Below are positions 1 to 12,276 of a DNA stretch of 12,276 nt, piece after piece. The first letter of the stretch is position 1. Each line of letters begins with the position of its first letter. The stretch is from a virus (lineage: Duplodnaviria > Heunggongvirae > Uroviricota > Caudoviricetes). The stretch lies in the IMG/VR virus record IMGVR_UViG_2609459774_000003, positions 1 through 12,276 of that record. The stretch is one strand, 5' to 3'. The notes beneath the pieces were generated by a model. That model made no database searches and was not told the DNA's origin. It saw nothing but the letters and a program-made list of their open reading frames with translations. Both the position numbers and the translations under genes were made by a program.

Positions 1-651
1 TTACCAGTCAATCCAGAGCGGACCGTGTTCAGCGTAAATATAACTGTACACATCCAGATTATATTTGTGGTCTGTTAAGAACAGGCCGCAAATACATGCC
101 GAAGCTTCCAGGGCAGCGGCTCTGTTACTGAATAACCATGTGGCAACATTCCAGCGTTTTTCTGCATCCCAGTCTTTCTCAAGGCCTGATACCATGAAGA
201 AACCGTTAGTGTTGCCATCAAATAATTCTGTTTCCAGATTTTTAAGCAATGCCTGATGGACTCTTGCCAGGTATTCCGCCGGAATTTCGCCACGAATTCT
301 GATGAGATTGTCATAAACAAACATGTTCCCCGCATATGGCGATTTTTCTTTCTTGTTTTTTAAACCAGCATCATGAGCAAACTGATCAATTTCTTCTTCC
401 GTTGGTTTCGTATTGATGTTTTGCGCTGTCGTTTCTGCAATTTTATTTGCCACACTATCTGAGTCGTGTTTATTTACAGACGCACAGAAATACAATCCGG
501 TAAACGCATCGCGCACATTACGAGCCATATTATCAGTGTCTTTTTTCGTTACCGATTCCAATGCAAGTTCGTTCAGACGATGACGAAGTGTGTGTGCTGC
601 AATCTCCTGGATTGAAGTAGGTAAATCTTTAAATTCCATCGTCAACCTCAT
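1..651 (-). CDS. Hypothetical prophage early-left operon protein (216 aa), function unknown
   Basis: Complete ORF with ATG at 651..649 and stop (TAA on minus strand) at 3..1. Its ATG overlaps the stop of the upstream small ORF (CTGATG on minus strand), suggesting translational coupling. No family recognised by eye; moderately AT-rich. Confidence 0.55.
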   Translation of the reverse strand: MRLTMEFKDLPTSIQEIAAHTLRHRLNELALESVTKKDTDNMARNVRDAFTGLYFCASVNKHDSDSVANKIAETTAQNINTKPTEEEIDQFAHDAGLKNKKEKSPYAGNMFVYDNLIRIRGEIPAEYLARVHQALLKNLETELFDGNTNGFFMVSGLEKDWDAEKRWNVATWLFSNRAAALEASACICGLFLTDHKYNLDVYSYIYAEHGPLWIDW

Positions 652-884
652 CAGTCAGAGTTTCTTGCTAACCAGCGATGCGCGCCAGCTTCGGTTTTAA
701 ACGTTTTGCTTTTGGTATACGTCATCGCGGTGAACGTGCCGTCCTGGTTGGGAAACACGCCGCACACCAGAGATTCGTTGTTGCCAAGATCGATAGTATC
801 CATGTTGACCTCATTTCCCCTTAACGCCGGGGTAGCGGAACAAAAACCTGCTGCATAGTTATTAAAGTTGAACCCTGCCGTCAT
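651..884 (-). CDS. Small prophage protein; size and position are consistent with YdaF/YdaG-like small proteins of Rac-type prophages
   Basis: ORF 884..651 on minus strand; GAGG motif 6 nt upstream of the ATG at 884. An internal ATG at 803..801 is also preceded by GAGGT with a 5-nt spacer and would give a 50-aa product, so the true start is ambiguous. Lies downstream of the leftward promoter candidate. Confidence 0.45.
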   Translation of the reverse strand: MTAGFNFNNYAAGFCSATPALRGNEVNMDTIDLGNNESLVCGVFPNQDGTFTAMTYTKSKTFKTEAGAHRWLARNSD

Positions 885-984
885 GTTCTTACGCCTCGGG
901 CTGGCTACTTAACCCCTGACCACTGCCTGGTAACTCGAGGTATTGCCCTGTATTGTGTGGGACGGGATGGGTTGGTATGGGAAA

Positions 985-1026
985 ACTATAGGAAATGCCT
1001 AATTACTTGTCAATAGGCTATGCCTA
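985..1026 (-). promoter_or_regulatory. Leftward PL-like promoter with two operator half-palindromes (OL-like)
   Basis: On the minus strand: -35 TTGACA (1013..1008), 17-bp spacer, -10 TATAGT (990..985). 13-bp dyad sites TAGGCTATGCCTA (1014..1026) and imperfect TAGGAAATGCCTA (989..1001), centres 25 bp apart. Forms a 23-bp perfect inverted repeat with the PR module. Confidence 0.45.
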
Positions 1027-1121
1027 ATAATTTGGGCGCAACCTAATAGGTGATGGTTTGTGGAAGAGGTAGTAGGAGTTAACTAACGGGAACTAGGAAT
1101 TTCCCGTCGGACCATATAAGT

Positions 1122-1598
1122 TTAAGTTCCTGTCTTGGTGATGTTCTGGCTTTTCCGTTTTGATTCTTGATTTTTCAGATAGTTAGCTACCTTCATTTCC
1201 ATTGCGGCAATGTAGGCGCGAACGTCATGATCAACCCAACTAGGCTCCGTAGCATTTCCAGATAAGATGAAAGCCACAATTGCTCTTTTTTCATCAGAGG
1301 CGGCTTGATAAAGGCTGTTTATGTCTAAAAGTTCACTTTTTGTATCTGAAGTGGATGGGGTTGGTATGGGGTATTCGTTAAGCCCCCAATGCTCTGGACC
1401 AACCACATCAGAAAAGAAACGCCATAGTTCTGGAAGTTTGTCTTTACTTATCGAACCTTTCTTAATCCAGTCATGGATTGATGGTGGTTGGACTTTGAAA
1501 TGACGTGCGATTTCCGCCTTTGATTTGACGGCTCCTGATGCAATTTTTTTGTTAATGGCCTGCTCTATCGCTCGGCCTAAGTCTTTACCACTAAGCAT
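1122..1598 (-). CDS. racR: Prophage repressor, RacR-like (158 aa)
   Basis: 158-aa ORF; sequence recalled as matching the Rac prophage repressor RacR, with an HTH-like segment near the N-terminus. AGGAGA RBS 8 nt upstream of the ATG at 1598. Divergent from the ydaS-like gene, a classic immunity-region layout. Confidence 0.8.
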   Translation of the reverse strand: MLSGKDLGRAIEQAINKKIASGAVKSKAEIARHFKVQPPSIHDWIKKGSISKDKLPELWRFFSDVVGPEHWGLNEYPIPTPSTSDTKSELLDINSLYQAASDEKRAIVAFILSGNATEPSWVDHDVRAYIAAMEMKVANYLKNQESKRKSQNITKTGT

Positions 1599-1627
1599 TG
1601 CTTAATAGTCTCCTATGCGCATCGCGT

Positions 1628-1695
1628 TAGGCAATCCCTATTCTCGATGTATTAGGCATAGCCTATTGACAATTTCATTAGGCTAAGCCTAATAT
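1628..1695 (+). promoter_or_regulatory. Rightward PR-like promoter with tripartite operator (OR-like) in the racR-ydaS intergenic region
   Basis: -35 TTGACA (1666..1671), 18-bp spacer, -10 TAATAT (1690..1695). Three 13-bp dyads TAGGC-N3-GCCTA: TAGGCAATCCCTA (1628..1640), TAGGCATAGCCTA (1653..1665), TAGGCTAAGCCTA (1679..1691), centres 25-26 bp apart. Confidence 0.5.
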
Positions 1696-1722
1696 TGTTG
1701 CGTGTTTTTTGGAGTTCATTCG

Positions 1723-2043
1723 ATGAAAAAAGATAACTATTCATTCAAACGAGCTTGTGCTGTTGTCGGTGGGCAATCAGCAATGGCTAGGCTTTTAGGT
1801 GTATCTCCTCCAAGCGTAAATCAATGGATCAAAGGTGTACGTCAGTTACCTGCTGAGAGATGTCCTGCGATTGAACGAGCAACAAAAGGTGGTGTCCTGT
1901 GTGAAGAACTTCGTCCTGATGTTGATTGGACATACTTACGACGCTCGTCATGTTATTCGCAGAATATGTCGATGAAGCAACCAAATGACGAAAACGATCA
2001 TAAAAACGCAGAAATGCATGACGTGTGGCAATCAGGCAGATGA
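1723..2043 (+). CDS. ydaS: Cro-like HTH regulator, YdaS-like
   Basis: ATG at 1723 preceded by GGAG (1711..1714); the ORF-track start at 1702 lacks an RBS. N-terminus MKKDNYSFKRACAVVGGQSAMARLLGVSPPSVNQWIKG is HTH-like and recalled as YdaS. Divergent from racR. Confidence 0.75.
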   Translation: MKKDNYSFKRACAVVGGQSAMARLLGVSPPSVNQWIKGVRQLPAERCPAIERATKGGVLCEELRPDVDWTYLRRSSCYSQNMSMKQPNDENDHKNAEMHDVWQSGR

Positions 2044-2248
2044 TCCGCATCACATCATGGGTCATGGACTGGGAGGGATGGGAACAAAGGCTGATGATTT
2101 GTTTGTTATTCCGCTGTGCCGTAAATGCCATAGCGAACTACACGCCGGGGTAAAAGATTTTGAAGAAAAACACGGCAGCCAGCTGTTGTTGCTGATTCGT
2201 TTTTTAATGCACGCGAGAAATTCGGGTGTCCTGAAGTGGAAAGCATGA
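1985..2248 (+). CDS. DUF1364/YbcO-like Cys/His-rich putative zinc-dependent nuclease
   Basis: 87-aa ORF with CxxC ... HH ... PLCRKCHSELH pattern resembling nin-region YbcO-type proteins. Its 5' end overlaps the ydaS-like ORF (start ambiguous, 1985 or 2018); its stop TGA (2246..2248) abuts the rusA ATG. Confidence 0.55.
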   Translation: MTKTIIKTQKCMTCGNQADDPHHIMGHGLGGMGTKADDLFVIPLCRKCHSELHAGVKDFEEKHGSQLLLLIRFLMHARNSGVLKWKA

Positions 2249-2614
2249 ATGACTGAACGCATAGAATTTGTTTTGCCTTACCCGCCAACGGTGAACACTT
2301 ACTGGCGACGTCGTGGCAGCACATATTTTGTATCAAAAGCCGGTGAGCGTTATCGCCGTGATGTGGCGCTTATTGTTCGCCAGCAGCGACTGAAATTAAA
2401 CCTGTCCGGACGGCTGGCGATAAAGATTATTGCAGAGCCACCGGATAAACGTCGTCGTGACCTGGACAATATCCTGAAAGCACCACTGGATGCGCTGACG
2501 CATGCCGGACTTCTCATAGACGACGAGCAGTTTGATGAAATCAATATTGTGCGCGGTCAGCTCGTTCCTGGGGGGCGGCTGGGCGTGAAGATTTACAAAA
2601 TTGAGAGTGAGTGA
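2249..2614 (+). CDS. rusA: Holliday junction resolvase RusA
   Basis: 121-aa ORF; the RRRDLDN segment and overall size match the RusA family. ATG follows immediately after the upstream stop (ATGAATG), and its stop overlaps the next start (GTGA). Confidence 0.85.
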   Translation: MTERIEFVLPYPPTVNTYWRRRGSTYFVSKAGERYRRDVALIVRQQRLKLNLSGRLAIKIIAEPPDKRRRDLDNILKAPLDALTHAGLLIDDEQFDEINIVRGQLVPGGRLGVKIYKIESE

Positions 2615-3168
2615 TCGTAAATATGATATACCCGGAAATTACAGGCAAAAGCGGCGAGCATTTACGTCTAAAAACGCTGGAAGCCGTCTGGATCCAGGGG
2701 AAATTACGGATGTGGGGGCGTTGGTCGTACATAGGTGGTGGCAAACCAGGAAATATGTTCAATCAGTTGCTGGCATCCAAAACACTTACAAAAACTGCGA
2801 TCAATGAAGCTCTGCGCAGAATAAAAAAATCAGGGATTGATAAAACTGAGCTGGAAGCGTTTTTGCGTGAGATGATCAACAGCAAGCAAAAGAGCGGGCT
2901 GGCTTATTGTACTGATGCCGAGGCGTTATGTATCGATCGGGTAATTAGTGAAGTGTTGGCAGAGCATCCGGGATTGATTTGTATCCTCCGACAAAGATAT
3001 GAAGGGCTGGGTATGAGCAAGCTGAAAATGGCAGAACAGTTAAAAAAGAATCACCCTGACTGGAGCCTGAAAACTTGTAGAAATCGCATTGATGTTTGGT
3101 TGGCGATGGCTGAAACCATGCTTTTCCTTCCAATGTGCGTGGCACTTCGGTGCTTTTCTGATAACTGA
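2611..3168 (+). CDS. Putative late-gene antiterminator Q-like protein
   Basis: 185-aa ORF in the canonical position after the nin/rusA genes. GTG start at 2611 overlaps the rusA stop; alternative ATG at 2623. Assignment is mainly positional, with weak recalled similarity to small Q-family proteins. Confidence 0.5.
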   Translation: MIVNMIYPEITGKSGEHLRLKTLEAVWIQGKLRMWGRWSYIGGGKPGNMFNQLLASKTLTKTAINEALRRIKKSGIDKTELEAFLREMINSKQKSGLAYCTDAEALCIDRVISEVLAEHPGLICILRQRYEGLGMSKLKMAEQLKKNHPDWSLKTCRNRIDVWLAMAETMLFLPMCVALRCFSDN

Positions 3169-3197
3169 TGATAGAAGTGCATCAGCTATCAATCTTG

Positions 3198-3226
3198 TTG
3201 ACGTTCATCAAGGTCTGGACAATACT
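3198..3226 (+). promoter_or_regulatory. Candidate sigma70 promoter downstream of Q (pR'-like position)
   Basis: TTGACG (3198..3203), 17-bp spacer, AATACT (3221..3226), about 30 bp upstream of the ATPase start. The -10 is weak; this is a sequence-only guess. Confidence 0.25.
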
Positions 3227-3257
3227 TACGTTAAGTTCCAACATATGGAAGATAAGA

Positions 3258-4448
3258 ATGATATTTACACGATTGAGATTTATCAATTTGTACGCTTTTG
3301 AGGATGCAGAGCTTAACCTGTCCTATCCAAGGAAACCTGTAAACATGCCTCTTGATGGGGAGTTTTTGGCTGGACGGCCTAAATTTTACTATAAAAAAGT
3401 CTGTATCATAACGGGGGGAAATGCTTCAGGTAAGACGTCACTAGGGCGAATTCTTTGTGGAATTCAGGTGTTTCTAAGAACCAAAGAGTTGCGGAGTAAT
3501 CTGCGAGTGAATAATAAAAATAATGATGCTTCGTTTGAAGTGGACTTTGCTACGGAGGATCATTTTCATCATCGTTTGTATGTACGCTTTGCTACCAGTG
3601 AAGGCGGAGCGCACATAATCAAAGAAATTAAATATGGTTTTGTTCAAATAGCATTAAATGATTCTTGCCATAAAACCACAGAAAAACTGAATCAACTCTT
3701 TTCTGGAAGGGCCCCAGAAGATACAGAATATTTTTTTCAGGAACTAGCTACTGATAGCGAACCAGTTGTATTGGAGTTTTTCAAGCAACTTAAGTTTTTT
3801 GGTGGATGGTACTATTTGTTGTCTGAAACTAAAGAGAGTACCACTGCAATTTCAGGAATGAATAAAAATATTCTTGAAAGGATAATTCGCACTTTCGATT
3901 CAAGTATTATAGGAGTTACCGAGATGCTGGAGTCTGAAAGTGACGGGGATGAAAATAAATCATCTGCGGTTTATCTGATTAAATTTAAAAACTCTGATTC
4001 TCTTGTCGTTACCAGTAAAGGTGAAATAATTAACTCAGACCGTCTTTCTCGAGGAACATACGAGGCAGTGACGGTAGCGCATTTTATAAGCGCTATTATC
4101 TCTGATTGTGAAAGACTAGGTAAGCAATCTCTAATACCATCAATGACTTATTTTCTTGACGAGAAATTGGCTTATACACATTCAGAGTTAGAGCGTATGA
4201 TTGTGGCGCTGATTATATCTAATTTGAAAGAAAATACTCAGTTTTTCTATACAACGCATAACATGGATATTTTTGAGTTGGATCTGCCTGTTCACTCGTT
4301 CATTTTTATTAAAAAAACGAAAGACTATTCGGAGTTTGTTGAAGCAAATTCAGTTGTTAAAAAAAATGACCGTAGCATGCGAAACGCTGTTGAGAGAGAT
4401 GTCTTTGGTGTCTTACCTGACACATCATTAGTATCGGAGCTACTCTGA
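3258..4448 (+). CDS. OLD/AAA_21-like ABC-type ATPase (396 aa), candidate defence-system ATPase
   Basis: N-terminus MIFTRLRFINLYAFEDAELNL typical of SMC/RecF-like ABC ATPases. Walker A ITGGNASGKTS, ABC signature-like LSRGT, Walker B YFLDE, H-loop TTHN, with about 200 aa inserted between Walker A and the signature. AT-rich relative to flanks. The ORF-track start at 3168 is an RBS-less upstream extension; ATG at 3258 chosen. Confidence 0.75.
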   Translation: MIFTRLRFINLYAFEDAELNLSYPRKPVNMPLDGEFLAGRPKFYYKKVCIITGGNASGKTSLGRILCGIQVFLRTKELRSNLRVNNKNNDASFEVDFATEDHFHHRLYVRFATSEGGAHIIKEIKYGFVQIALNDSCHKTTEKLNQLFSGRAPEDTEYFFQELATDSEPVVLEFFKQLKFFGGWYYLLSETKESTTAISGMNKNILERIIRTFDSSIIGVTEMLESESDGDENKSSAVYLIKFKNSDSLVVTSKGEIINSDRLSRGTYEAVTVAHFISAIISDCERLGKQSLIPSMTYFLDEKLAYTHSELERMIVALIISNLKENTQFFYTTHNMDIFELDLPVHSFIFIKKTKDYSEFVEANSVVKKNDRSMRNAVERDVFGVLPDTSLVSELL

Positions 4449-4981
4449 TGGCGGGGTTGTCTAAAATAAGAATAATTTTTGTCGAAGGTGAAACAGAAAA
4501 CTCTCTTTTTCTGAAGATGAAACAACAGAGAGTTATTGATGCCAAATCAATTGTAAAAAGAAACTTTTGGCAAGAGAGCATAAGAAATTATGCGATTACT
4601 ATTCCGAAGGGAAGTGATATACTAATTGTCTTTGATAGTGATGAAGTGGAGCAATCTGCAAGATTCATTGAAAATGTAAAGTTCCTTAAAAACAGAGGGC
4701 ATAAAGTTTATCTTTTGCAGCAGAAAAGAAATTTTGAGGAGGAGTTGGCCTGGTGTTGCGGAATTCCTGTAAAAAAACTAATTGCTGGGTTCTGTGCAAA
4801 AAAAACATCGGGTATAAATGATTTCAAGAGAGATTTTATTGCTTGTAACAATCAACTTTCAAAGTTACTGAAAATGGGCATGCAGGAAACTAAGTGGTTT
4901 ACAAGAGATTTACATGCTGTATTGGAGCCTGTTGCAAGTTTTAAGTCATCTTTTTCTAAACATTTCAGGTTAACAAGATGA
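4448..4981 (+). CDS. Small TOPRIM-domain protein (177 aa), putative nuclease partner of the ATPase
   Basis: N-terminal IIFVEGETE (conserved TOPRIM glutamate) and ILIVFDSDE (DxD motif). ATG overlaps the ATPase stop (TGATG), with GGAG 8 nt upstream. AT-rich like its partner. Confidence 0.7.
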   Translation: MAGLSKIRIIFVEGETENSLFLKMKQQRVIDAKSIVKRNFWQESIRNYAITIPKGSDILIVFDSDEVEQSARFIENVKFLKNRGHKVYLLQQKRNFEEELAWCCGIPVKKLIAGFCAKKTSGINDFKRDFIACNNQLSKLLKMGMQETKWFTRDLHAVLEPVASFKSSFSKHFRLTR

Positions 4982-5116
4982 TTTATTTTCTTTTTTGTTC
5001 AGCTGATTGTTTTTGTTTGTAAAATGTCTTGATTTTTTGCCAATAAACTGTTTCAATCCAGCTACGCTTCGCAAAGCTGTACCGCGAGGCGAATAGCAGA
5101 CATGGACACCTGAAAG

Positions 5117-5140
5117 AACCCGCTTTATGCGGGTTTTTTT
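5117..5140 (+). terminator. Rho-independent terminator
   Basis: Stem AACCCGC / GCGGGTT with loop TTTAT, followed by a T7 run (5134..5140). Confidence 0.7.
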
Positions 5141-5263
5141 ATGCCTGAAAAACGGCACAGAACATTAAACGCGCTGGTAGTTGTGAATACTGGTCTTTCA
5201 GCTTGCTGGCTTTTTCGACAAGAGGTATTGGTATATCACGTTAACCAGAAAAGGGAAAAAGGC

Positions 5264-5461
5264 ATGCTAAAACAGCAGGATATGACCGAAACCGCCAGAG
5301 TGGTGTTTAATGAATTAAGCGTCACCGAACCGGCGACCGTCGGGGAAATTGCGCAGAATACTTACCTTTCACGCGAACGCTGCCAGTTAATACTGACTCA
5401 GCTTGTTATGGCGGGTCTGGCAGATTATCAGTTCGGTTGTTACAGACGCCTTCCGCAGTGA
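5264..5461 (+). CDS. Small hypothetical protein (65 aa)
   Basis: ATG at 5264 preceded by a purine-rich AAGGGAAAAAGG stretch. The longer ORF-track version (5141) would begin inside the terminator T-run and is unlikely. Confidence 0.45.
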   Translation: MLKQQDMTETARVVFNELSVTEPATVGEIAQNTYLSRERCQLILTQLVMAGLADYQFGCYRRLPQ

Positions 5462-5611
5462 AGGCTTTTTAATTTGTGGTAATGGGCGGCTGGTGGGTGT
5501 TAGCGGCACCTGCCAGCCATCTGCTCATGCGTTGGGGTCACAAGCAAACCTCAGGCCCATCTGCTTTGCGCAAAAGCGGTATGAGCCTATCAGAGAAGTG
5601 CTTATTGATCT

Positions 5612-6661
5612 ATGGCCAATACTGTAAAAATATCCAGTTGTGAGTTAATCAACGCTGATTGCCTGGAATTTATCCAGACCTTACCGGAAAATTCTGTCGA
5701 TCTGATAGTCACAGACCCGCCATACTTTAAAGTGAAGCCCGAGGGCTGGGATAACCAGTGGGAGGGCGACGATGATTACCTGAAATGGCTGGACCAGTGT
5801 CTGGCGCAGTTCTGGCGGGTACTGAAGCCTGCCGGAAGTCTTTACCTGTTCTGTGGTCATCGCCTGGCATCTGACACCGAAATCATGATGCGTGAGCGCT
5901 TTAATGTGCTGAACCACATTATCTGGGCGAAGCCGTCCGGACGCTGGAACGGGTGCAATAAGGAAAGTCTGCGGGCGTATTTTCCGGCAACAGAGCGCAT
6001 TCTGTTTGCAGAACATTATCAGGGACCGTATCGCCCGAAAGATGATGGCTATGTGGAGCAGGGGCGCGAGCTAAAACAGCACGTCATGGCCCCGCTGATT
6101 TCTTACTTTCGTGATGCGCGTAAATCACTGGGAATAACGTCAAAACAGATAGCGGAAGCCACCGGAAAGAAAAACATGGCTTCGCACTGGTTTGGTACCA
6201 GTCAGTGGCAGTTACCGAACGAGGGTGATTACAACAAATTGCAGGCGTTGTTTGCGCGTGTTGCGGCAGAAAAACATCAGCGCGGGGAACTGGAAAAGCC
6301 ACACCACCAGCTGGTCAGCACATACAGTGAGCTGAACCGGCAGTATACGGAACTGCTGAGTGAATATAAAAATTTGCGGCGGTATTTCGGTGTGACGGCG
6401 CAGGTTCCGTACACCGATGTCTGGACGCATAAACCGGTGCAGTACTATCCAGGAAAACATCCGTGCGAAAAACCGGCAGAAATGCTGCAGCAGATAATCA
6501 ACGCGAGCAGTCGTCCGGGAGACCTGGTTGCAGATTTTTTTATGGGTTCAGGTTCAACGGTAAAAGCGGCGATGGCACTGGGGCGTTGTGCGATTGGTGT
6601 TGAGCTGGAGACCGGACGTTTTGAACAGACAGTCAGGGAAGTTCAGGATTTAATCGTTTGA
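5612..6661 (+). CDS. DNA N6-adenine/N4-cytosine methyltransferase, beta-class (orphan, phage-type)
   Basis: Motif IV DPPY (VTDPPYF) near the N-terminus and motif I FxGxG (DFFMGSGST) near the C-terminus, the beta-class order. No adjacent restriction endonuclease is visible. Confidence 0.85.
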   Translation: MANTVKISSCELINADCLEFIQTLPENSVDLIVTDPPYFKVKPEGWDNQWEGDDDYLKWLDQCLAQFWRVLKPAGSLYLFCGHRLASDTEIMMRERFNVLNHIIWAKPSGRWNGCNKESLRAYFPATERILFAEHYQGPYRPKDDGYVEQGRELKQHVMAPLISYFRDARKSLGITSKQIAEATGKKNMASHWFGTSQWQLPNEGDYNKLQALFARVAAEKHQRGELEKPHHQLVSTYSELNRQYTELLSEYKNLRRYFGVTAQVPYTDVWTHKPVQYYPGKHPCEKPAEMLQQIINASSRPGDLVADFFMGSGSTVKAAMALGRCAIGVELETGRFEQTVREVQDLIV

Positions 6662-6710
6662 AACGGATGAGATTGCAGAATTAATTACGCACCATTATTA
6701 TTCTGCTCCC

Positions 6711-6786
6711 GGCCCTTTAGCTCAGTGGTGAGAGCGAGCGACTCATAATCGCCAGGTCGCTGGTTCAAATCCAGCAAGGGCCACCA
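6711..6786 (+). tRNA. ileZ: tRNA-Ile2 (anticodon CAU, lysidine type; could be annotated tRNA-Met by software)
   Basis: Manually folded cloverleaf: acceptor GGCCCTT/AAGGGCC, D-stem GCTC/GAGC, anticodon loop CTCATAA, T-arm GCTGG-TTCAAAT-CCAGC, encoded CCA. Closely resembles E. coli tRNA-Ile2. Confidence 0.8.
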
Positions 6787-6793
6787 TCACATA

Positions 6794-6870
6794 CCGCCAT
6801 TAGCTCATCAGGATAGAGCGCCAGCCTTCGAAGCTGGTTGCGCGGGGTTCGAGTCCTCGATGGCGGTCCA
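6794..6870 (+). tRNA. argN: tRNA-Arg (anticodon UCG)
   Basis: Manually folded cloverleaf: acceptor CCGCCAT/ATGGCGG (unusual C1:G72), D-stem GCTC/GAGC, anticodon stem CCAGC/GCTGG, loop CTTCGAA, T-arm with one G:U pair, encoded CCA. Confidence 0.7.
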
Positions 6871-6883
6871 TTATCTGCATTAT

Positions 6884-6960
6884 GCGTTGTTAGCTCAGCC
6901 GGACAGAGCAATTGCCTTCTAAGCAATCGGTCACTGGTTCGAATCCAGTACAACGCGCCA
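6884..6960 (+). tRNA. argO: tRNA-Arg (anticodon UCU)
   Basis: Manually folded cloverleaf: acceptor GCGTTGT/ACAACGC, D-stem GCTC/GAGC, anticodon stem ATTGC/GCAAT, loop CTTCTAA, T-arm ACTGG-TTCGAAT-CCAGT, encoded CCA. Confidence 0.8.
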
Positions 6961-6974
6961 CGCTTATTTTTCCA

Positions 6975-6997
6975 GGCTCGCTTCGGCGGGCCTTTTT
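6975..6997 (+). terminator. Rho-independent terminator after the tRNA cluster
   Basis: Stem GGCTCGC / GCGGGCC (one G:U pair) with a UUCG tetraloop, followed by TTTTT (6993..6997). Confidence 0.6.
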
Positions 6998-7135
6998 CAT
7001 ATCCGCGCCACGCCCGGCGCACATCAAAAAACCACAGAGCCTTTCAGGGATGAGCTTACGGGATGGTCAGTGTGACTTTCTCTGTGGGCTGGTCACCCCC
7101 GGGCGCAGGCTCACCCACTAAAAGGAAAAGTCACG

Positions 7136-7561
7136 ATGTTTGGTATTTTCAAAAAGAAAACCCGCAAGGCCATTACCGAGGTGAAGAAGATGGAGAACCG
7201 TGACGCAGTGGAGGCGACCGTCTGGGGCGCGTACTCCATTGCATACGCTGACGGCACCTGTGACGCGAAAGAAATCGCGGTACTGGAAAAAACCATTGCA
7301 GCACTTCCTGTCTTTGCGCCGTTCTCCGGTGAGATTGCACAAATGAGTGCAAATATCCGCGCCCGTTATGAAGCGTCGCCGCGTTCTGCCAATGCCGAAG
7401 CTCTTCGTCAGCTGGCTGATGTTGCCGGTACTGATGATGCAGTTAATGTGCTGTGCCTGTGTCTGGATATCGCTGACCAGGACGGTATCGGTCAGGAAGA
7501 AGAAGCGCAACTGAAGAAAATTGCGCAGGCGCTGCAGTTGCCGCTGGAGCAGTACCTGTGA
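7136..7561 (+). CDS. TerB-like domain protein (tellurite-resistance TerB family fold), cargo gene downstream of the tRNAs
   Basis: 141-aa ORF with AAGGA RBS; acidic helical protein whose ADG/DQDG and EEEAQL features resemble TerB-like domains. Sits where stx or other cargo genes sit in related phages. Confidence 0.5.
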   Translation: MFGIFKKKTRKAITEVKKMENRDAVEATVWGAYSIAYADGTCDAKEIAVLEKTIAALPVFAPFSGEIAQMSANIRARYEASPRSANAEALRQLADVAGTDDAVNVLCLCLDIADQDGIGQEEEAQLKKIAQALQLPLEQYL

Positions 7562-8559
7562 AAAGTGCGCGCCTTGTGCTGGCTGTCATCCTGTTGTTTC
7601 TGGTACAGGCTGCAGCCGTACACACGTTGTACGGGTATATCGATTATCTTGCCAGAAATCTGTTGCCGGACATGTGTGATGAAGACTGGTTGTACCGGCA
7701 CGCCAGAATCAAACGCTGCCTGCGAAAAGATGCGGTGACAGCCCGGGGATTTGTGCGCTGGGATGGCGTAGAGGGAACACCTGTATTGCCAGCGGGAACG
7801 CAGATCCAGCGTGATGATCAGGTGACCTTCACCACGACGGCGACGGTGACCGCAGCCGATGGTCTTCTCCGGGTGCCTGTTGTGGCAGATGAACCGGGGG
7901 CGGCGGGGAATACGGATGATGGTATTGCCATGCAACTGGGAACACCCGTCAGTGGTCTGCCGTCCACAGGGTACGCGGACACCATTACAGACGGTGAAGA
8001 TATTGAAAATCTGGAAATATGGCGTGCCCGCGTTATGGAACGTTATTACTACATTCCACAGGGGGGCGCAGACCCTGATTATGTTATCTGGGCGAAAGAA
8101 GTTCAGGGTATTAACCGTGCATGGACTTTCAGACACTGGAAAGGCATTGGAACGGTTGGCGTGATGGTGGCGACAAACGATCCGGAACATCCGGCTCCGG
8201 ATGAAAGCGTCATTAATGCAGTCAGAGAACACATTCTTCCTCTGACACCGGTTGCCGGAAGTGGATTGTATGTATTCGGTGCCACAGAAAAAGTCATCCC
8301 GATGACGATTGCATTATCGAAAGACACACCGCAGATCAGGACTGCAATAAAAGCAGAGCTGAATGCACTGATGTTACGGGATGGTGTGCCAGAGGGGCGT
8401 ATGTATCTGTCCAGAATCAGTGAGGCCATCAGTTTGTCTGCTGGTGAAGTGGCTCACCGGTTAATCGTCCCTTCATCGGATATTGACCTGGGGGAGACCG
8501 AGCTTCCGGTGCTCGGCGAGATCACCTGGCAGGCTTATGACCCGGCAAGGAGTAAATAA
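7558..8559 (+). CDS. Baseplate J-like protein (Mu gp47 / P2 gpJ family), probably 5'-truncated or fused at a deletion junction
   Basis: The conserved baseplate-J core appears only about 25 aa from the start. The preceding N-terminus (GTG start overlapping the TerB-like stop) is hydrophobic and unlike the family. The rest is GC-rich and tail-like. Confidence 0.6.
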   Translation: MKSARLVLAVILLFLVQAAAVHTLYGYIDYLARNLLPDMCDEDWLYRHARIKRCLRKDAVTARGFVRWDGVEGTPVLPAGTQIQRDDQVTFTTTATVTAADGLLRVPVVADEPGAAGNTDDGIAMQLGTPVSGLPSTGYADTITDGEDIENLEIWRARVMERYYYIPQGGADPDYVIWAKEVQGINRAWTFRHWKGIGTVGVMVATNDPEHPAPDESVINAVREHILPLTPVAGSGLYVFGATEKVIPMTIALSKDTPQIRTAIKAELNALMLRDGVPEGRMYLSRISEAISLSAGEVAHRLIVPSSDIDLGETELPVLGEITWQAYDPARSK

Positions 8560-9518
8560 TGGATTCGTTACAGGATGATTATACAAAGCTGCTGTACGGA
8601 CTGATGCCGCCGGGGCCTGCATGGAGCGATACCGACGGCGTGCTTGATGGTCTGGCACCATCGCTTGTACGTGTTCATCAGCGGACTGATGAACTGATGG
8701 CTGAAATCGATCCTGGTCAGTCAACAGAGCTGATTGAACGTTATGAAGAATTGTATGGTTTACCTGACACCTGCTCTCCTGTTGGAGCCCAGACATTACG
8801 CCAGCGTCAGCAACGGCTGGAAGCAAAAGCCAATGTGGCTGGTGGCATAAATGAGCAGTTCTTCCTGGAGCAGCTTGAGGCGCTGGGATATACCGGCGTG
8901 ACGATCGAACAGTTCCAGCACCTGGATGCAAGCCCCGATCCGGAATGGGGTGATCGCTGGCGTTATTTCTGGCGTGTGACGTTGCCGGTGGATGCCGGTG
9001 CTCAGTGGCAGACATGTTCGGACACCTGTAACACACCGATCCGGACGTGGGGTGATACGGTTGCGGAGTGCGTGATTAATAAATTATGTCCGTCGCATAC
9101 TGTTGTCCTTTTTGCATATCCGGATGAGTCTGGTGAAGGGCAACAAGCCGCCCTGACTATAAACAGCCTCTCCTTTCAGGCCGGACACAAGACGACTGAG
9201 CCATTAGCGATTAATCATACAGGTGTTCATTTTGCGGTTGTTCCGGCACTGACAGGTAAGCCGCTGACAATTAACCGGATTAACTTTTATGCCGCCCGTC
9301 CGATGGCAGAACCACTGGTACTCAGCAGGGCGCAATTGCACTCAGGTCTGCCGACAACGGACCCCATGACCATGAACAGCGCACAGTTGCAGACGGGATA
9401 CAGGACCCGCTCCCCCGTACCGGTTAACAGTATGCAGTTGCAGACAGCCAGCAGAACCCGTGAACCGTTATTGATTAATCACCCGGGACTGCATTTTGCT
9501 GTGGTCACGTCCGAATGA
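8559..9518 (+). CDS. YmfQ-like (DUF2313, Mu gp48-like) baseplate protein with a ~125-aa repeat-containing C-terminal extension
   Basis: ATG overlaps the upstream stop (TAATG), with AAGGAG RBS. The N-terminal ~190 aa is recalled as YmfQ-like. The C-terminus carries degenerate repeats (EPLAINHTGVHFAVV / EPLLINHPGLHFAVV; AQLHSG / AQLQTG / MQLQTA). Confidence 0.7.
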   Translation: MDSLQDDYTKLLYGLMPPGPAWSDTDGVLDGLAPSLVRVHQRTDELMAEIDPGQSTELIERYEELYGLPDTCSPVGAQTLRQRQQRLEAKANVAGGINEQFFLEQLEALGYTGVTIEQFQHLDASPDPEWGDRWRYFWRVTLPVDAGAQWQTCSDTCNTPIRTWGDTVAECVINKLCPSHTVVLFAYPDESGEGQQAALTINSLSFQAGHKTTEPLAINHTGVHFAVVPALTGKPLTINRINFYAARPMAEPLVLSRAQLHSGLPTTDPMTMNSAQLQTGYRTRSPVPVNSMQLQTASRTREPLLINHPGLHFAVVTSE

Positions 9519-9541
9519 CATAAAATAAAAGGAGAGCCGCT

Positions 9542-10591
9542 TTGAATATTATTAAACTCGAAAGTTTTCGACAAATTCCGGCGAATGAGGGATTGTGCGA
9601 GAACTATTATTCAACAAATATTATTTCAGCACTGAACGAAAACGGTGTCACGCTTATCAATGATATGTCCGGTTCTGTAACATCCGTCTGTCGTGGCACT
9701 CAGGCCGTAAATACTGTAGAAAGAACGGGGCTGATTTTTACGACACCCTCATATGTCACACTGTACAGCACACTTCCGGACTTAAAAGCCTCAGCTGTAC
9801 AGCTGGGATTTCGTCTGACATTAAGTGCGGGAAAGAAATATTCATCTTCGCCATCCCACATCAGGATTAATGGCTATTCATTTACAACCCCGTATCCTGA
9901 TGAAGCAGCCAGTTATTACTATGAAATTTTCGCAACGCGAAACGAAAACGGCTATGTCTCAGCCAGTCTGTACTGCAACCGCTCATTAGTTGGAAATACA
10001 TCGTTTTATGTACCAGATGACCGGACTGACAAAATTCAGGTGAGTATTGGTGGTGGTAACAATATTTTTTCATCGGGTGCATCCGGCACGTTAATGCTGG
10101 GTGATATGTACTGTGGAACAGTGACATACGGTAGAAATAATAGTGCAGAACCCGCCCTGCTCGGAAGCATTGAGGTCAGATACAGCCCGGTAACGGCATT
10201 TACCGGTGGAAGCGCCAAAAACTCACTGAATAAAGATATTGTCACGGGGCTGAACACCTCTGACAGCGAGGCCGGATATCTGATGCTCTCGCCGTCCCTG
10301 AATGCAGCACAGGCCACGTTTGGTGCGGTGGATAACAGCAACAGTGATGTTGTGGCCGTTATGGCCTCGGTCACTTACCGCGGTGCTGATGCCCCCAATA
10401 ACCGCCTGGCCTGGAAAGTGAAAAATGGCAGCCATGAAGGCGCAACGATTACAGAGAATGGCGTACAAAGCGACACAAACAGCTGGACGACTGTCTCACA
10501 GAGTTTTATGACCCAACCAGGAGGGAGCACTCCCTTCGCTAAGGGTGAACTGACTTTTACAGCGGAATTGTTTAATCAGGCAAGGACATAA
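9542..10591 (+). CDS. Hypothetical tail-associated protein (349 aa), S/T/N/G-rich, possible receptor-binding or cargo protein
   Basis: TTG start with a strong AAGGAG RBS 7 nt upstream. Lower GC than the neighbouring baseplate genes. No recognisable catalytic motifs; composition is typical of beta-rich fibre or lectin-like domains. Confidence 0.55.
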   Translation: MNIIKLESFRQIPANEGLCENYYSTNIISALNENGVTLINDMSGSVTSVCRGTQAVNTVERTGLIFTTPSYVTLYSTLPDLKASAVQLGFRLTLSAGKKYSSSPSHIRINGYSFTTPYPDEAASYYYEIFATRNENGYVSASLYCNRSLVGNTSFYVPDDRTDKIQVSIGGGNNIFSSGASGTLMLGDMYCGTVTYGRNNSAEPALLGSIEVRYSPVTAFTGGSAKNSLNKDIVTGLNTSDSEAGYLMLSPSLNAAQATFGAVDNSNSDVVAVMASVTYRGADAPNNRLAWKVKNGSHEGATITENGVQSDTNSWTTVSQSFMTQPGGSTPFAKGELTFTAELFNQART

Positions 10592-10621
10592 TTCTGATAT
10601 TTCATTCACGGGAGGTTTAAT

Positions 10622-11731
10622 ATGCACAGAATTGACACTCCGACAGCAGTTAAAGATAAATTTGGCCCGGGCAAGAACGGATTTACTGACGGGAATATTC
10701 GTACAGGGCGTCATGCCACCTGGCTGAACAGTGCCATGTGGGATGCCCTTCAGGAGGAAATCTGTGGTGTCATTGAGAAGGCCGGGATAGAACTGAATAA
10801 AGAGGAACACGACCAGTTATATAAAGCCATATTATTACTGGTTGGCGGTGCGATTAACGAAGAGGCATTGCTGATAAAAAATAATCTTTCGGATGTCGAA
10901 GACAGTGATGAGGCTGTTGAAAACCTCGGATTAAAACCCACGGTGGATAAGGCAAAAAATGCCGTTCAGCGTGATGGAGACACCATGACCGGGGAGCTGA
11001 AAATCCGTGGCGTTAATGCACTGAGGATTTTCAACGAAGCCTTTGGTCTGATTTTTCGTCGTTCGGAAGAGTGTCTGCACCTCATTCCTACCCGGGAAAA
11101 TCAGGGCGAGAGTGGTGATATTGGGCCGCTACGCCCCTTTACGCTTAATCTCAGGACCGGTCGCATAACTATGGGACATGGTCTGGATGTTACAGAAGAT
11201 GTATTTGCAGGCCGTTTTGCGATTAACAGCAGTAACGGAACGTGGATTCAGATGCGTGACAACAACGTTATTTTCGGGAAAAACAGGATAAATACTGATG
11301 CTGCTCAGGCGCTTCTGCGTCAGGATCATGCAGACAGAAAGTATTTCCTGGCTGGTCTTGGGAATAAGCAGTTTGGCATTTACATGATAAATAATAGCCG
11401 TACGGATAATGGTACGGACGGTCAGGCGTATATGGATGATGCGGGAAACTGGCGATGCGGGCGTCAGGTTATACCGTCAGACTACGGAAACTTCGATGCC
11501 CGCTACCAGACCAAAACAGGTGGCGTACAGAATTTTCAGTATACCAGTGAGGTGTTTTACAACCCGGGCGGGAATGAGCACAGCTGGACGTTTCGAGCAC
11601 CTTCTGGTTGTGTTTTGTCAGGCATTAATGTTCAGGATACTGGCCGTAACTCTGCAGACAATATCGGTGGCGTGTATTACAAACAGGCTCAGATTTATAT
11701 TAATGGTGCATGGCGATCTGTATCAGGTTAA
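10622..11731 (+). CDS. Side tail fibre protein (Stf-like)
   Basis: N-terminus MHRIDTPTAVKDKFGPGKNGFTDGN matches the conserved N-terminus of enterobacterial prophage side tail fibres. DGDTMTGEL motif present. GGGAGG RBS. Confidence 0.8.
   Translation: MHRIDTPTAVKDKFGPGKNGFTDGNIRTGRHATWLNSAMWDALQEEICGVIEKAGIELNKEEHDQLYKAILLLVGGAINEEALLIKNNLSDVEDSDEAVENLGLKPTVDKAKNAVQRDGDTMTGELKIRGVNALRIFNEAFGLIFRRSEECLHLIPTRENQGESGDIGPLRPFTLNLRTGRITMGHGLDVTEDVFAGRFAINSSNGTWIQMRDNNVIFGKNRINTDAAQALLRQDHADRKYFLAGLGNKQFGIYMINNSRTDNGTDGQAYMDDAGNWRCGRQVIPSDYGNFDARYQTKTGGVQNFQYTSEVFYNPGGNEHSWTFRAPSGCVLSGINVQDTGRNSADNIGGVYYKQAQIYINGAWRSVSG
10913..10938. other. Candidate Hin/Gin/Pin-family invertase crossover site inside stf
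   Basis: GCTGTTGAAAACCTCGGATTAAAACC: the left half TTGAAAACC and core match the hix/gix consensus as recalled. It falls at the ENLGL-encoding constant/variable junction of the fibre gene, as in Mu G and e14 P segments. Confidence 0.4.
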
Positions 11732-11745
11732 TTAAGGAGAAAATA

Positions 11746-12276
11746 ATGGAACTCTCAAACATTACGCGTTACTACCCTGAAGACATGCCTTATGGTGACG
11801 GCATTCAGTATTTCCGTAGTGAAGACGGGCAGGATTTTTATGAATCACTGGATAAATTCACGAAGAAATACAAGCTGTGCACGCATCCTGAAACCGGCGT
11901 TATTTATTCCGTGGCGGAAGATGTATCCCGTCTTTATCCCGTTGGTTTTACCATTGTGGAAGTGGATGAACTACCGGATGGCTTTTGTATAGAGGCGCGC
12001 TGGTATTATAAAGACGGTGAAGTACTACCGGTCCCTGTTGACTACAGGCAGCAGGCAGAGTCGGAGCGTGCACGTCTTACTGCGATTGCCGAACGGGAAA
12101 TATCCGATAAGAAGACGGATTTACTTTTGGGAATCATCGGTGATGAAGAAAAAGAAAAGCTGACAGTCTGGCGCATTTACGCGAAATTGCTGCAGGCGAT
12201 GGATTTCAGCACCATCACTGATAAAACCTCATATAACGCCATTGAATGGCCCGTCTCTCCGGAAGCCTCTTCCTGA
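11746..12276 (+). CDS. Tail fibre assembly protein (Tfa-like, 176 aa)
   Basis: ATG at 11746 with AAGGAGA RBS 5 nt upstream. N-terminus MELSNITRYYPED is typical of Tfa/U-family chaperones. Stop is at the window end (12274..12276). The ORF-track start at 11710 overlaps stf and lacks an RBS. Confidence 0.8.
   Translation: MELSNITRYYPEDMPYGDGIQYFRSEDGQDFYESLDKFTKKYKLCTHPETGVIYSVAEDVSRLYPVGFTIVEVDELPDGFCIEARWYYKDGEVLPVPVDYRQQAESERARLTAIAEREISDKKTDLLLGIIGDEEKEKLTVWRIYAKLLQAMDFSTITDKTSYNAIEWPVSPEASS

Follow-up and report, generated by a model that had tools for sequence, protein, structure and literature searches.

What is a 349-codon open reading frame (ORF), lower in guanine-plus-cytosine (GC) content than the baseplate genes before it, doing between the baseplate and tail-fibre genes of an Escherichia coli prophage? 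The question arises at positions 9542-10591 of the 12,276-nucleotide (nt) stretch of DNA analysed here in full (the window; IMG/VR virus record IMGVR_UViG_2609459774_000003). An earlier examination of the letters alone (the sequence-only reading) had proposed a candidate receptor-binding or cargo protein of unknown family for this ORF, hereafter X. With somewhat better than even confidence, we consider that X belongs to a portable accessory appendage of the tail with two parts, a repeat tether and, as the distal subunit, the lectin-like X itself. The partner element of X lies outside the coordinates of the ORF, in a C-terminal extension of the preceding ymfQ gene (9150-9515). Since it always travels with a repeat tether on a baseplate or side-fibre protein, X most probably serves the tail as an additional, exchangeable subunit for host recognition and not as cargo. 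The proposed module comprises the following features, with lengths in amino acids (aa).

8559-9518, + strand: Mu Gp48/YmfQ ORF, 319 aa
8559-9140, + strand: canonical Mu Gp48/YmfQ baseplate-wedge domain, aa 1-194 (PF10076 at aa 13-187, E 1.7e-24; phrog_203, 'baseplate wedge subunit')
9150-9515, + strand: YmfQ C-terminal extension of seven tandem 17-aa repeats (one of 20 aa), consensus E-P-L-x-I-N-R-x-x-L-Q-S-G/A-x-x-T-x
9150-9200, + strand: repeat R1
9201-9260, + strand: repeat R2, cap-like, ending ...GVHFAVV
9261-9311, + strand: repeat R3
9312-9362, + strand: repeat R4
9363-9413, + strand: repeat R5
9414-9464, + strand: repeat R6
9465-9515, + strand: repeat R7, the terminal cap, PLLINHPGLHFAVVTSE followed by the stop
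9529-9534, + strand: Shine-Dalgarno sequence AAGGAG, 7 nt 5' of the TTG, read from the sequence
9542-10591, + strand: ORF X, 349 aa, phrog_8291
9542-10141, + strand: predicted beta-sandwich (jelly-roll) domain at the N-terminus of X, roughly aa 1-200, GC 0.423, with the conserved strand NIIKLE(S/G)F
10154-10588, + strand: smaller C-terminal beta-sandwich domain of X in the model, about aa 205-349, GC 0.53

The YmfQ protein of the window has 319 aa against the usual 193-196 aa, and its 125 extra C-terminal residues carry the repeats. R2 and R7 are unlike the others, both ending in ...GxHFAVV and forming a 45-nt DNA repeat of 73% identity; across X loci, arrays almost invariably finish with a distinctive cap repeat, PLxINxxGLxFAVxxE directly before the stop. 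Ratios of nonsynonymous to synonymous substitution rates (dN/dS) of 0.30-0.36 indicate that the extension is under purifying selection. Such extensions are uncommon: among 118 YmfQ clusters a handful exceed about 196 aa, and the repeats occur in four (P0043, P0044, P0045 and P0092). In an AlphaFold2 monomer of the 319-aa protein, the predicted local distance difference test (pLDDT) score falls below 50 for aa 189-319, a value that does not distinguish a shaft, a solenoid or disorder and is compatible with a segment that folds on a partner. A homology search with the 125-aa extension alone returned a single fragment and says little, and phmmer of the repeats against all PDB sequences returned nothing. 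In RefSeq, the Prokaryotic Genome Annotation Pipeline (PGAP) lists extended ymfQ (8559-9518 in the window; 13018-13602 in locus L001, an intact SfV/Mu-like prophage of E. coli E100341 at about 2.015-2.033 Mb of NZ_CM128606) as a pseudogene, 'YmfQ family protein, incomplete, missing C-terminus', and the 125 codons of repeats are unannotated. This call is probably a systematic mis-annotation, because the frame of 319-320 codons is open, conserved and under purifying selection.

The association between X and these repeats was followed through the genomic context of homologues across the whole family (35 loci). In 33 of the 35, the preceding ORF stops 1-32 nt short of X and terminates in a repeat array; in L018 and L019, the repeats are borne by a 330-aa Gp48 encoded two genes upstream, stf and tfa intervening. 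Repeats also accompany a 30%-identical Salmonella homologue and a distant metagenomic member (profile E 6e-42), in both cases in a diverged form, xVPVKxxYGxxh.... Altogether the repeat tails comprise thirteen distinct sequences with a spacing of 17-20 aa and 2-7 copies. The converse test, a degenerate two-repeat DNA pattern run over 2.9 million IMG/VR contigs, gave 54 matches; all 8 genuine arrays lay on contigs with X, and the remainder were chance matches.

The protein that carries the repeats varies. Gp48/YmfQ is the commonest carrier, in several quite different versions (the window, L011, L019, L028, L029 and L036). Elsewhere the carrier is phage_tail_N, the Stf N-terminus (PF08400), identified by Pfam in L006, L007, L009 and L037, while in L013, L023 and L024 it ends in the same tail-fibre motif, the assignment being made by that motif. 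In L002 and L041 the repeats form a free protein of 64-84 aa, beginning MFxLLLxGK and encoded after an Stf stub. Stf-type carriers, with or without Phage_fiber_2 repeats, are found in two settings: downstream of J and lom in lambdoid siphoprophages, and behind the regular fibre and Tfa in Mu-like myoprophages. In the Stf-stub loci the tail module ends with X. Mu/SfV-like myovirus prophages with a lambda-type Stf N-terminal gene (PF08400) after the fibre and Tfa were seen at L042 7505-8189, L009 7391-7999 and L006 7141-7983, and their gene order indicates that baseplates of contractile tails also make use of a 'siphovirus' side-fibre anchor.

Two comparisons bear on how the module moves. One prophage, whose YmfQ is 92% identical but lacks the extension (196 aa), has no X in the slot; its fibre follows directly and is 80% identical to the window's stf over the first 180 aa. 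The extension and X therefore represent an insertion, and the normal fibre is independent of both. In P0092/L036, the Gp48 domain is only about 49% identical to that of the window, whereas repeats 3-7 and X are 98-100% identical, a jump that places a recombination joint at the internal cap repeat. Across carriers, X and the repeats show two-way genetic linkage and are distributed as an accessory, cassette-like unit. X was also considered as an adaptor for stf, a role that was rejected: the stf N-terminus is the same in the prophage that lacks X and has an unextended YmfQ, and X is terminal in the Stf-stub loci.

X itself is an intact frame of 349 codons, with a TTG start at 9542-9544 and a TAA stop at 10589-10591. 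Its N-terminus, MNIIxLEGFRQIP, is the best-conserved stretch in the family alignment; relatives begin at the same codon, with TTG or ATG (TTG in most E. coli alleles), and purine-rich sites equivalent to AAGGAG precede them. The TTG start is accordingly real, since the conserved N-terminus fixes it. Values of dN/dS between 0.18 and 0.34, about 0.2 against eight alleles, indicate a real gene under purifying selection. No promoter-like or terminator-like sites were found between ymfQ, X and stf, so X is read with the late tail operon, and its sequence contains no signal peptide or transmembrane segment. In a lambdoid-prophage allele (L007 7960-8030), the DNA shows a one-base frameshift near codon 10, the frame opening with ATG as MSKTNIQLEGY... 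and continuing as ...RVIGQIPEDEEL in the next frame. The protein called from this allele (P0026) lacks the conserved N-terminal strand and reflects a pseudogene or an assembly error; an apparent joint loss of the cap motif and the N-terminal strand at L007 was dropped in view of this frameshift.

Most of what the sequence-only reading had remarked on in X holds. The AAGGAG site and TTG start are borne out by the relatives, Pfam and PHROGs agree with a position between the baseplate wedge and stf, and the combined share of serine, threonine, asparagine and glycine is 39.3%, whereas jayE and ymfQ have 21.6-22.3%. The lower GC content needs qualification. It holds against jayE (0.535) and ymfQ (0.534), but X (0.469) equals stf (0.474) and tfa (0.460), and the drop is limited to the first 200 codons (0.423; 0.39 at third codon positions, GC3), the C-terminal 149 codons (10142-10591) having a GC of 0.529 and a GC3 of 0.553. 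This compositional mosaic suggests that the two domains differ in recombination history. The absence of a recognisable motif and the family of unknown identity were likewise upheld: X matches no family in Pfam-A, NCBIfam or PADLOC, and its one counterpart is the unannotated phrog_8291 of PHROGs, matched over its full length (E 4.1e-244, residues 1-349 on positions 1-349 of 349).

An AlphaFold2 model of X (pLDDT 90.3, predicted template modelling score 0.89) is a single chain with two beta-sandwich domains. Its fold superimposes, as a fold-level match only, on concanavalin A (ConA)-like lectins, carbohydrate-binding modules (CBMs) and jelly-roll lyases, and the predicted fold class is that of the ConA-like lectin/CBM beta-jelly-roll sandwich; a lectin/LamG-type fold was among those the earlier reading had suggested looking for. 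Seven invariant polar residues (Q87, R91, Y126, E128, D188, Y190 and Y196) lie on three long strands of the N-terminal domain, and some of the more variable stretches of the family fall around aa 291-335 of the C-terminal domain. The model is a compact two-domain globule without a helix bundle or beta-helix, unlike a trimeric tail fibre or tailspike receptor-binding protein (RBP). No tail-fibre family in Pfam or PHROGs matches X, nor does Caudo_TAP (PF02413); the real Tfa of the window is the ORF at 11710-12276.

Foldseek against BFVD extends this picture to phages of the Casjensviridae, where proteins of about 350 aa match X over its full length (template modelling scores of 0.6-0.67, E 1e-13 to 1e-15, about 14% identity) in phages that include AchV4, JS26, Kokobel1, JC01, Saba and Enc34. 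Aligning the X family with the AchV4 paralogues in hhalign gave a probability of 84% and an E value of 7e-6 over 194 columns. The paralogues concerned are AchV4_0025, AchV4_0026 and AchV4_0027, the JS26 proteins QGF20882/20879/20874/20872 and chi_072-075 of Chi. Their N-termini (MTLLHMDGFDQF, MAIIDLEGFERL and MLKFMDGFDQL) form the same strand as MNIINLEGFRQI in X, and the motif MxhhxM(D/E)GF(D/E)Q is common to both. X appears to be remotely homologous to Casjensviridae virion proteins: liquid chromatography-tandem mass spectrometry identified AchV4_0025 and AchV4_0026 in purified virions, and the two were described as tail-module proteins lacking recognised relatives (PMC7996906). The genes occupy tail-end blocks, each with 3-5 tandem paralogues of 316-415 aa followed by a 578-707-aa protein that consists almost wholly of repeats (about 20-26 aa each, (Y/F)PDxxxPxSxxxVxQVhE...), just before the lysis genes.

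L098 (AchV4), 16050-20991: Casjensviridae tail-end block
L099 (JS26), 949-7477: Casjensviridae tail-end block
L101/L102 (Chi), chi_072-075 and chi_001: Casjensviridae tail-end block

These observations can be combined into a candidate mechanism. The tether, 2-7 repeats and a cap, would be fused to, or associated with, a protein at the periphery of the tail, and X, a soluble protein of two beta-sandwiches translated from the same late tail operon, would dock on it non-covalently. From the conservation of the N-terminal strand and of the cap, together with the invariant polar face (Q87, R91, Y126, E128, D188, Y190), we infer that docking contacts would be made by the strand MNIIxLEGFRQIP, by the polar face of the N-terminal domain, or by both. 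X would then be carried in the virions of these prophages and displayed at the baseplate periphery or on a side-fibre stub, where it may bind a host-surface glycan, lipopolysaccharide or capsule, as an adsorption and host-range determinant added beside the ordinary stf/tfa fibre. A more elaborate arrangement, which we think rather unlikely, would make each 17-aa repeat a docking site instead of part of a shaft, so that several X molecules sit on one tether as 'beads on a string'. Every wedge of the baseplate, or every side-fibre stub, would then bear a multivalent lectin array whose valency follows the number of repeats (2-7), and the same arrangement would cover the Casjensviridae, with their 3-5 X-like paralogues beside a 578-707-aa protein of more than 20 repeats.

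X homologues are few and patchily distributed. They form 27 clusters of 39-99% identity, a profile search of 1.84 billion representative proteins returned 17, and X is present in 64 of 5426 complete E. coli genomes (about 1%). Further homologues occur in Escherichia albertii and Raoultella and, distantly, in Salmonella (30% identical); among GTDB representative genomes the sole X locus is in E. albertii. The distant homologues P0027, P0030 and P0034 also match phrog_8291, and P0041, the most distant member, matches phrog_2448 (E 5e-5); against PDB sequences the best profile match has an E value of only 0.32. Many of the E. coli carriers are human diarrhoeal or enterotoxigenic E. coli (ETEC)-type isolates (B7A, ETEC6, E2528-C1, and the RIVM and Gambia/GEMS-like series), and several carrier genomes contain 2-5 matching places each.

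Several observations weigh against an appendage with a host-recognition subunit. The low pLDDT of the YmfQ extension could merely reflect a shallow alignment. Many receptor-binding proteins concentrate variation in a C-terminal tip, and divergence in X is spread evenly along the protein. The link to the Casjensviridae is remote, a hidden Markov model (HMM) search of the X profile against their paralogues with hmmsearch giving nothing significant. X, the repeat module and P0041 are all absent from 50,697 sequenced phages by tblastn; all X carriers are prophages. The prophage of the window is itself truncated: it lacks lysis, head and most tail genes and is a deleted, cryptic remnant, so the X module here is only a remnant or acts in trans, and particle proteomics on this strain would fail for the same reason.

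Four other explanations were weighed against this reading. Were X a non-virion moron (superinfection exclusion, defence or host fitness) that is merely located in the tail-fibre region, itself a moron hot spot, its GC content below that of the baseplate genes, the GC3 of its N-terminal half, its occurrence in about 1% of complete E. coli genomes and its intactness in a deleted, cryptic prophage would all be expected. Yet it has no promoter or terminator of its own, no signal peptide, transmembrane segment or PADLOC match, a GC content equal to that of stf and tfa, and remote relatives that are virion proteins. A non-virion X is, moreover, hard to explain because of the strict two-way linkage with repeats built into virion structural proteins, and we regard a moron as very unlikely. 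Of the two roles proposed by the sequence-only reading, receptor binding is the better supported, while cargo or exclusion loses ground to the missing promoter, terminator, signal peptide and defence match and to the repeat linkage. Its view of X as an accessory rather than a standard tail part agrees with the slot comparison, in which the prophage with the 92%-identical YmfQ lacks X; X is not a component conserved in all relatives. Another possibility retains the tether and makes X a tail-borne polysaccharide lyase or glycanase ('depolymerase') whose jelly-roll catalytic domain cleaves capsule, O-antigen or another surface polymer. The fold-level likeness to jelly-roll lyases fits this idea; none of the lyase motifs of polysaccharide lyase (PL) families PL7, PL14 and PL36 (RxExR, QxH and YxKxGxYxQ) is present in X, and the family alignment has no invariant histidine. 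A depolymerase seems quite improbable, if slightly less so than a moron.

The remaining two explanations reassign the repeats. X might help to assemble or chaperone the repeat extension or the fibres, and be missing from the mature particle or present there in sub-stoichiometric amounts: the extension is predicted to be unfolded alone, X lies directly downstream of its presumed client, where fibre chaperones often sit, and the conserved weak TTG start would suit a low-abundance factor. With 349 aa, two lectin-like domains and no Caudo_TAP match, however, X is unlike known tail-fibre chaperones; a repeat extension that existed just to be chaperoned would be functionless, in the Stf-stub loci, where X closes the tail module, there is no distal portion of a fibre for it to fold, and the AchV4 relatives are found in virions. 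Such a role is, in our estimate, highly improbable. Alternatively, the repeats could form a trimeric triple beta-spiral shaft of the adenovirus or reovirus type with X as the knob at its tip, a conventional fibre split between two genes. The adenovirus shaft repeat is PLxVxxxxLxV, and the period and hydrophobic spacing of the present repeats, P0-L1-x-I3-...-L8-x-(S/F)10, are compatible with it. Carriers with an Stf N-terminus are expected to be trimeric, and the distinctive final repeat could naturally act as the cap. The commonest carrier, Gp48/YmfQ, is present, however, as one copy per baseplate wedge and so does not offer the three parallel chains required; the free 64-84-aa repeat protein also serves, no PDB sequence matches the repeats, and the AlphaFold2 monomer is uninformative. 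We give this shaft little credence, as little as the chaperone. A two-part appendage bearing X as its host-recognition subunit is the reading that we retain.

The window is a stretch of an E. coli-type prophage. Its halves match two prophage types: in complete E. coli genomes, positions 1-7605 match one and 7603-12276 another, and none of these genomes contains both halves. The Baseplate_J ORF begins with GTG and has 333 aa against 360 aa elsewhere, and the switch of matches at about 7603, inside this ORF, marks a deletion or recombination joint at which the genes for lysis, the head and most of the tail were removed. The other features of the window are as follows.

2611-3168, + strand: Q-like antiterminator (DUF1133), from library scans
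3168-4981, + strand: low-GC two-gene island, GC 0.34-0.37 against a window mean of 0.47
5612-6661, + strand: N6/N4 DNA methyltransferase, between the early region and the shortened baseplate gene
7136-7561, + strand: TerB-like ORF of 141 aa (PF05099; phrog_632, 'tellurite resistance'), before the shortened baseplate gene
7558-8559, + strand: Baseplate_J (jayE), 333 aa, by Pfam and PHROGs
10622-11731, + strand: tail fibre stf, 369 aa (phrog_6859, 'tail fiber'), an ordinary neighbour not required to explain X
11710-12276, + strand: tail fibre assembly protein tfa, the stf partner (Pfam Caudo_TAP, PF02413, E 1.2e-21)

The island consists of two overlapping ORFs directly 3' of the Q-like antiterminator. 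One encodes a 426-aa ATPase with a PADLOC match to AbiLi (E 7.6e-26), and the other a 177-aa protein with a weak match to AbiLii (E 1.5e-3). Together they look like an AbiL-like abortive-infection pair inserted after the antiterminator.

Temperate coliphages owe their host range to tail-tip modules that can be exchanged, and the X locus appears to be an undescribed module of this kind, in which a lectin-like subunit is paired with a short tether that can be grafted onto unrelated tail proteins: Gp48, a lambda Stf stub or a free adaptor. Should X dock as proposed, this would explain a recurrent 'hypothetical protein' in prophages of ETEC and other E. coli, E. albertii, Raoultella and Salmonella, and would correct the PGAP annotation of extended ymfQ as a truncated pseudogene. 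It would also provide a compact docking tag, transferable between proteins, with which receptor-binding proteins could be engineered onto the tails of myophages and siphophages, and it would open a first route to the function of the chi_072-075-type proteins in Chi-like phages. If the tether carries several X molecules, the implications would widen to an unrecognised, widespread assembly of modular adhesion appendages, in which jelly-roll adhesins plug into a linear repeat scaffold, again with a docking tag for RBP engineering. If docking is false, X is an ordinary accessory prophage gene with no assigned function.

Comparison with known systems helps to define what is shared and what is particular to X. 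Members of the ConA-like superfamily (legume lectins, CBM4/22/51, the sialidase lectin domain and PL7/14/20/36 lyases) are 6-13% identical to X and give no family HMM match; X lacks a recognisable metal or sugar site and catalytic motifs, and is predicted to combine two such domains with an N-terminal docking strand. The Casjensviridae paralogues resemble X in size, two-sandwich architecture, N-terminal strand, position in the distal tail module after a short 'tail fibre' gene and the company of a repeat-rich protein. They differ in forming sets of 3-5 tandem paralogues rather than a single gene, and in belonging to siphophages rather than to Mu-like or lambdoid prophages. Their repeats, moreover, have another sequence and reside in a separate downstream gene, whereas the X locus has a short 17-aa array fused upstream; we treat the likeness of the repeat protein to the X tether as an analogy and do not claim homology of the repeats.

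Fibre-tip adhesins offer a parallel of another kind. In T2, T6 and S16, with gp38 on gp37, and in the Tfa-type systems of Mu and lambda, a small protein encoded downstream of the fibre binds its C-terminal end and gives or modulates receptor recognition, and the pair is exchanged as a cassette. The X locus is analogous in that a small protein lies directly downstream of its anchor gene and appears to be exchanged as a cassette. It differs in that X bears no sequence or fold relation to these proteins, having neither Caudo_TAP nor a polyglycine sandwich, and in that the anchor of gp38-type proteins is the tip of a long trimeric fibre, whereas that of X would be a 17-aa array on a wedge protein or fibre stub.

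The lambda Stf/Tfa system is nearer in gene content: in several X loci the repeat carrier is a bona fide Stf N-terminal domain (PF08400), sometimes with Phage_fiber_2, placed after J and lom as in lambda. Unlike in lambda, the 17-aa array and X replace the long shaft, the C-terminal receptor domain and Tfa. Branched systems such as G7C gp63.1/gp66, CBA120 TSP1-4 and the dual-RBP Klebsiella phages (see also PMC13579863) resemble the proposed role of X in that an extra RBP is attached through a docking element, confers a second specificity and is modular. Those RBPs, however, are trimeric beta-helix tailspikes whose N-terminal anchors dock on spikes, whereas X is compact, lectin-like and a predicted monomer, with a tandem peptide repeat as the putative docking element. 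In the full-text searches made, neither the tether of 17-aa repeats nor its ability to move between Gp48 and Stf stubs was found described. An accessory receptor-binding protein seated on an adaptor is thus a known idea, to which the X family and its tether would add what appear, from sequence and model, to be new components.

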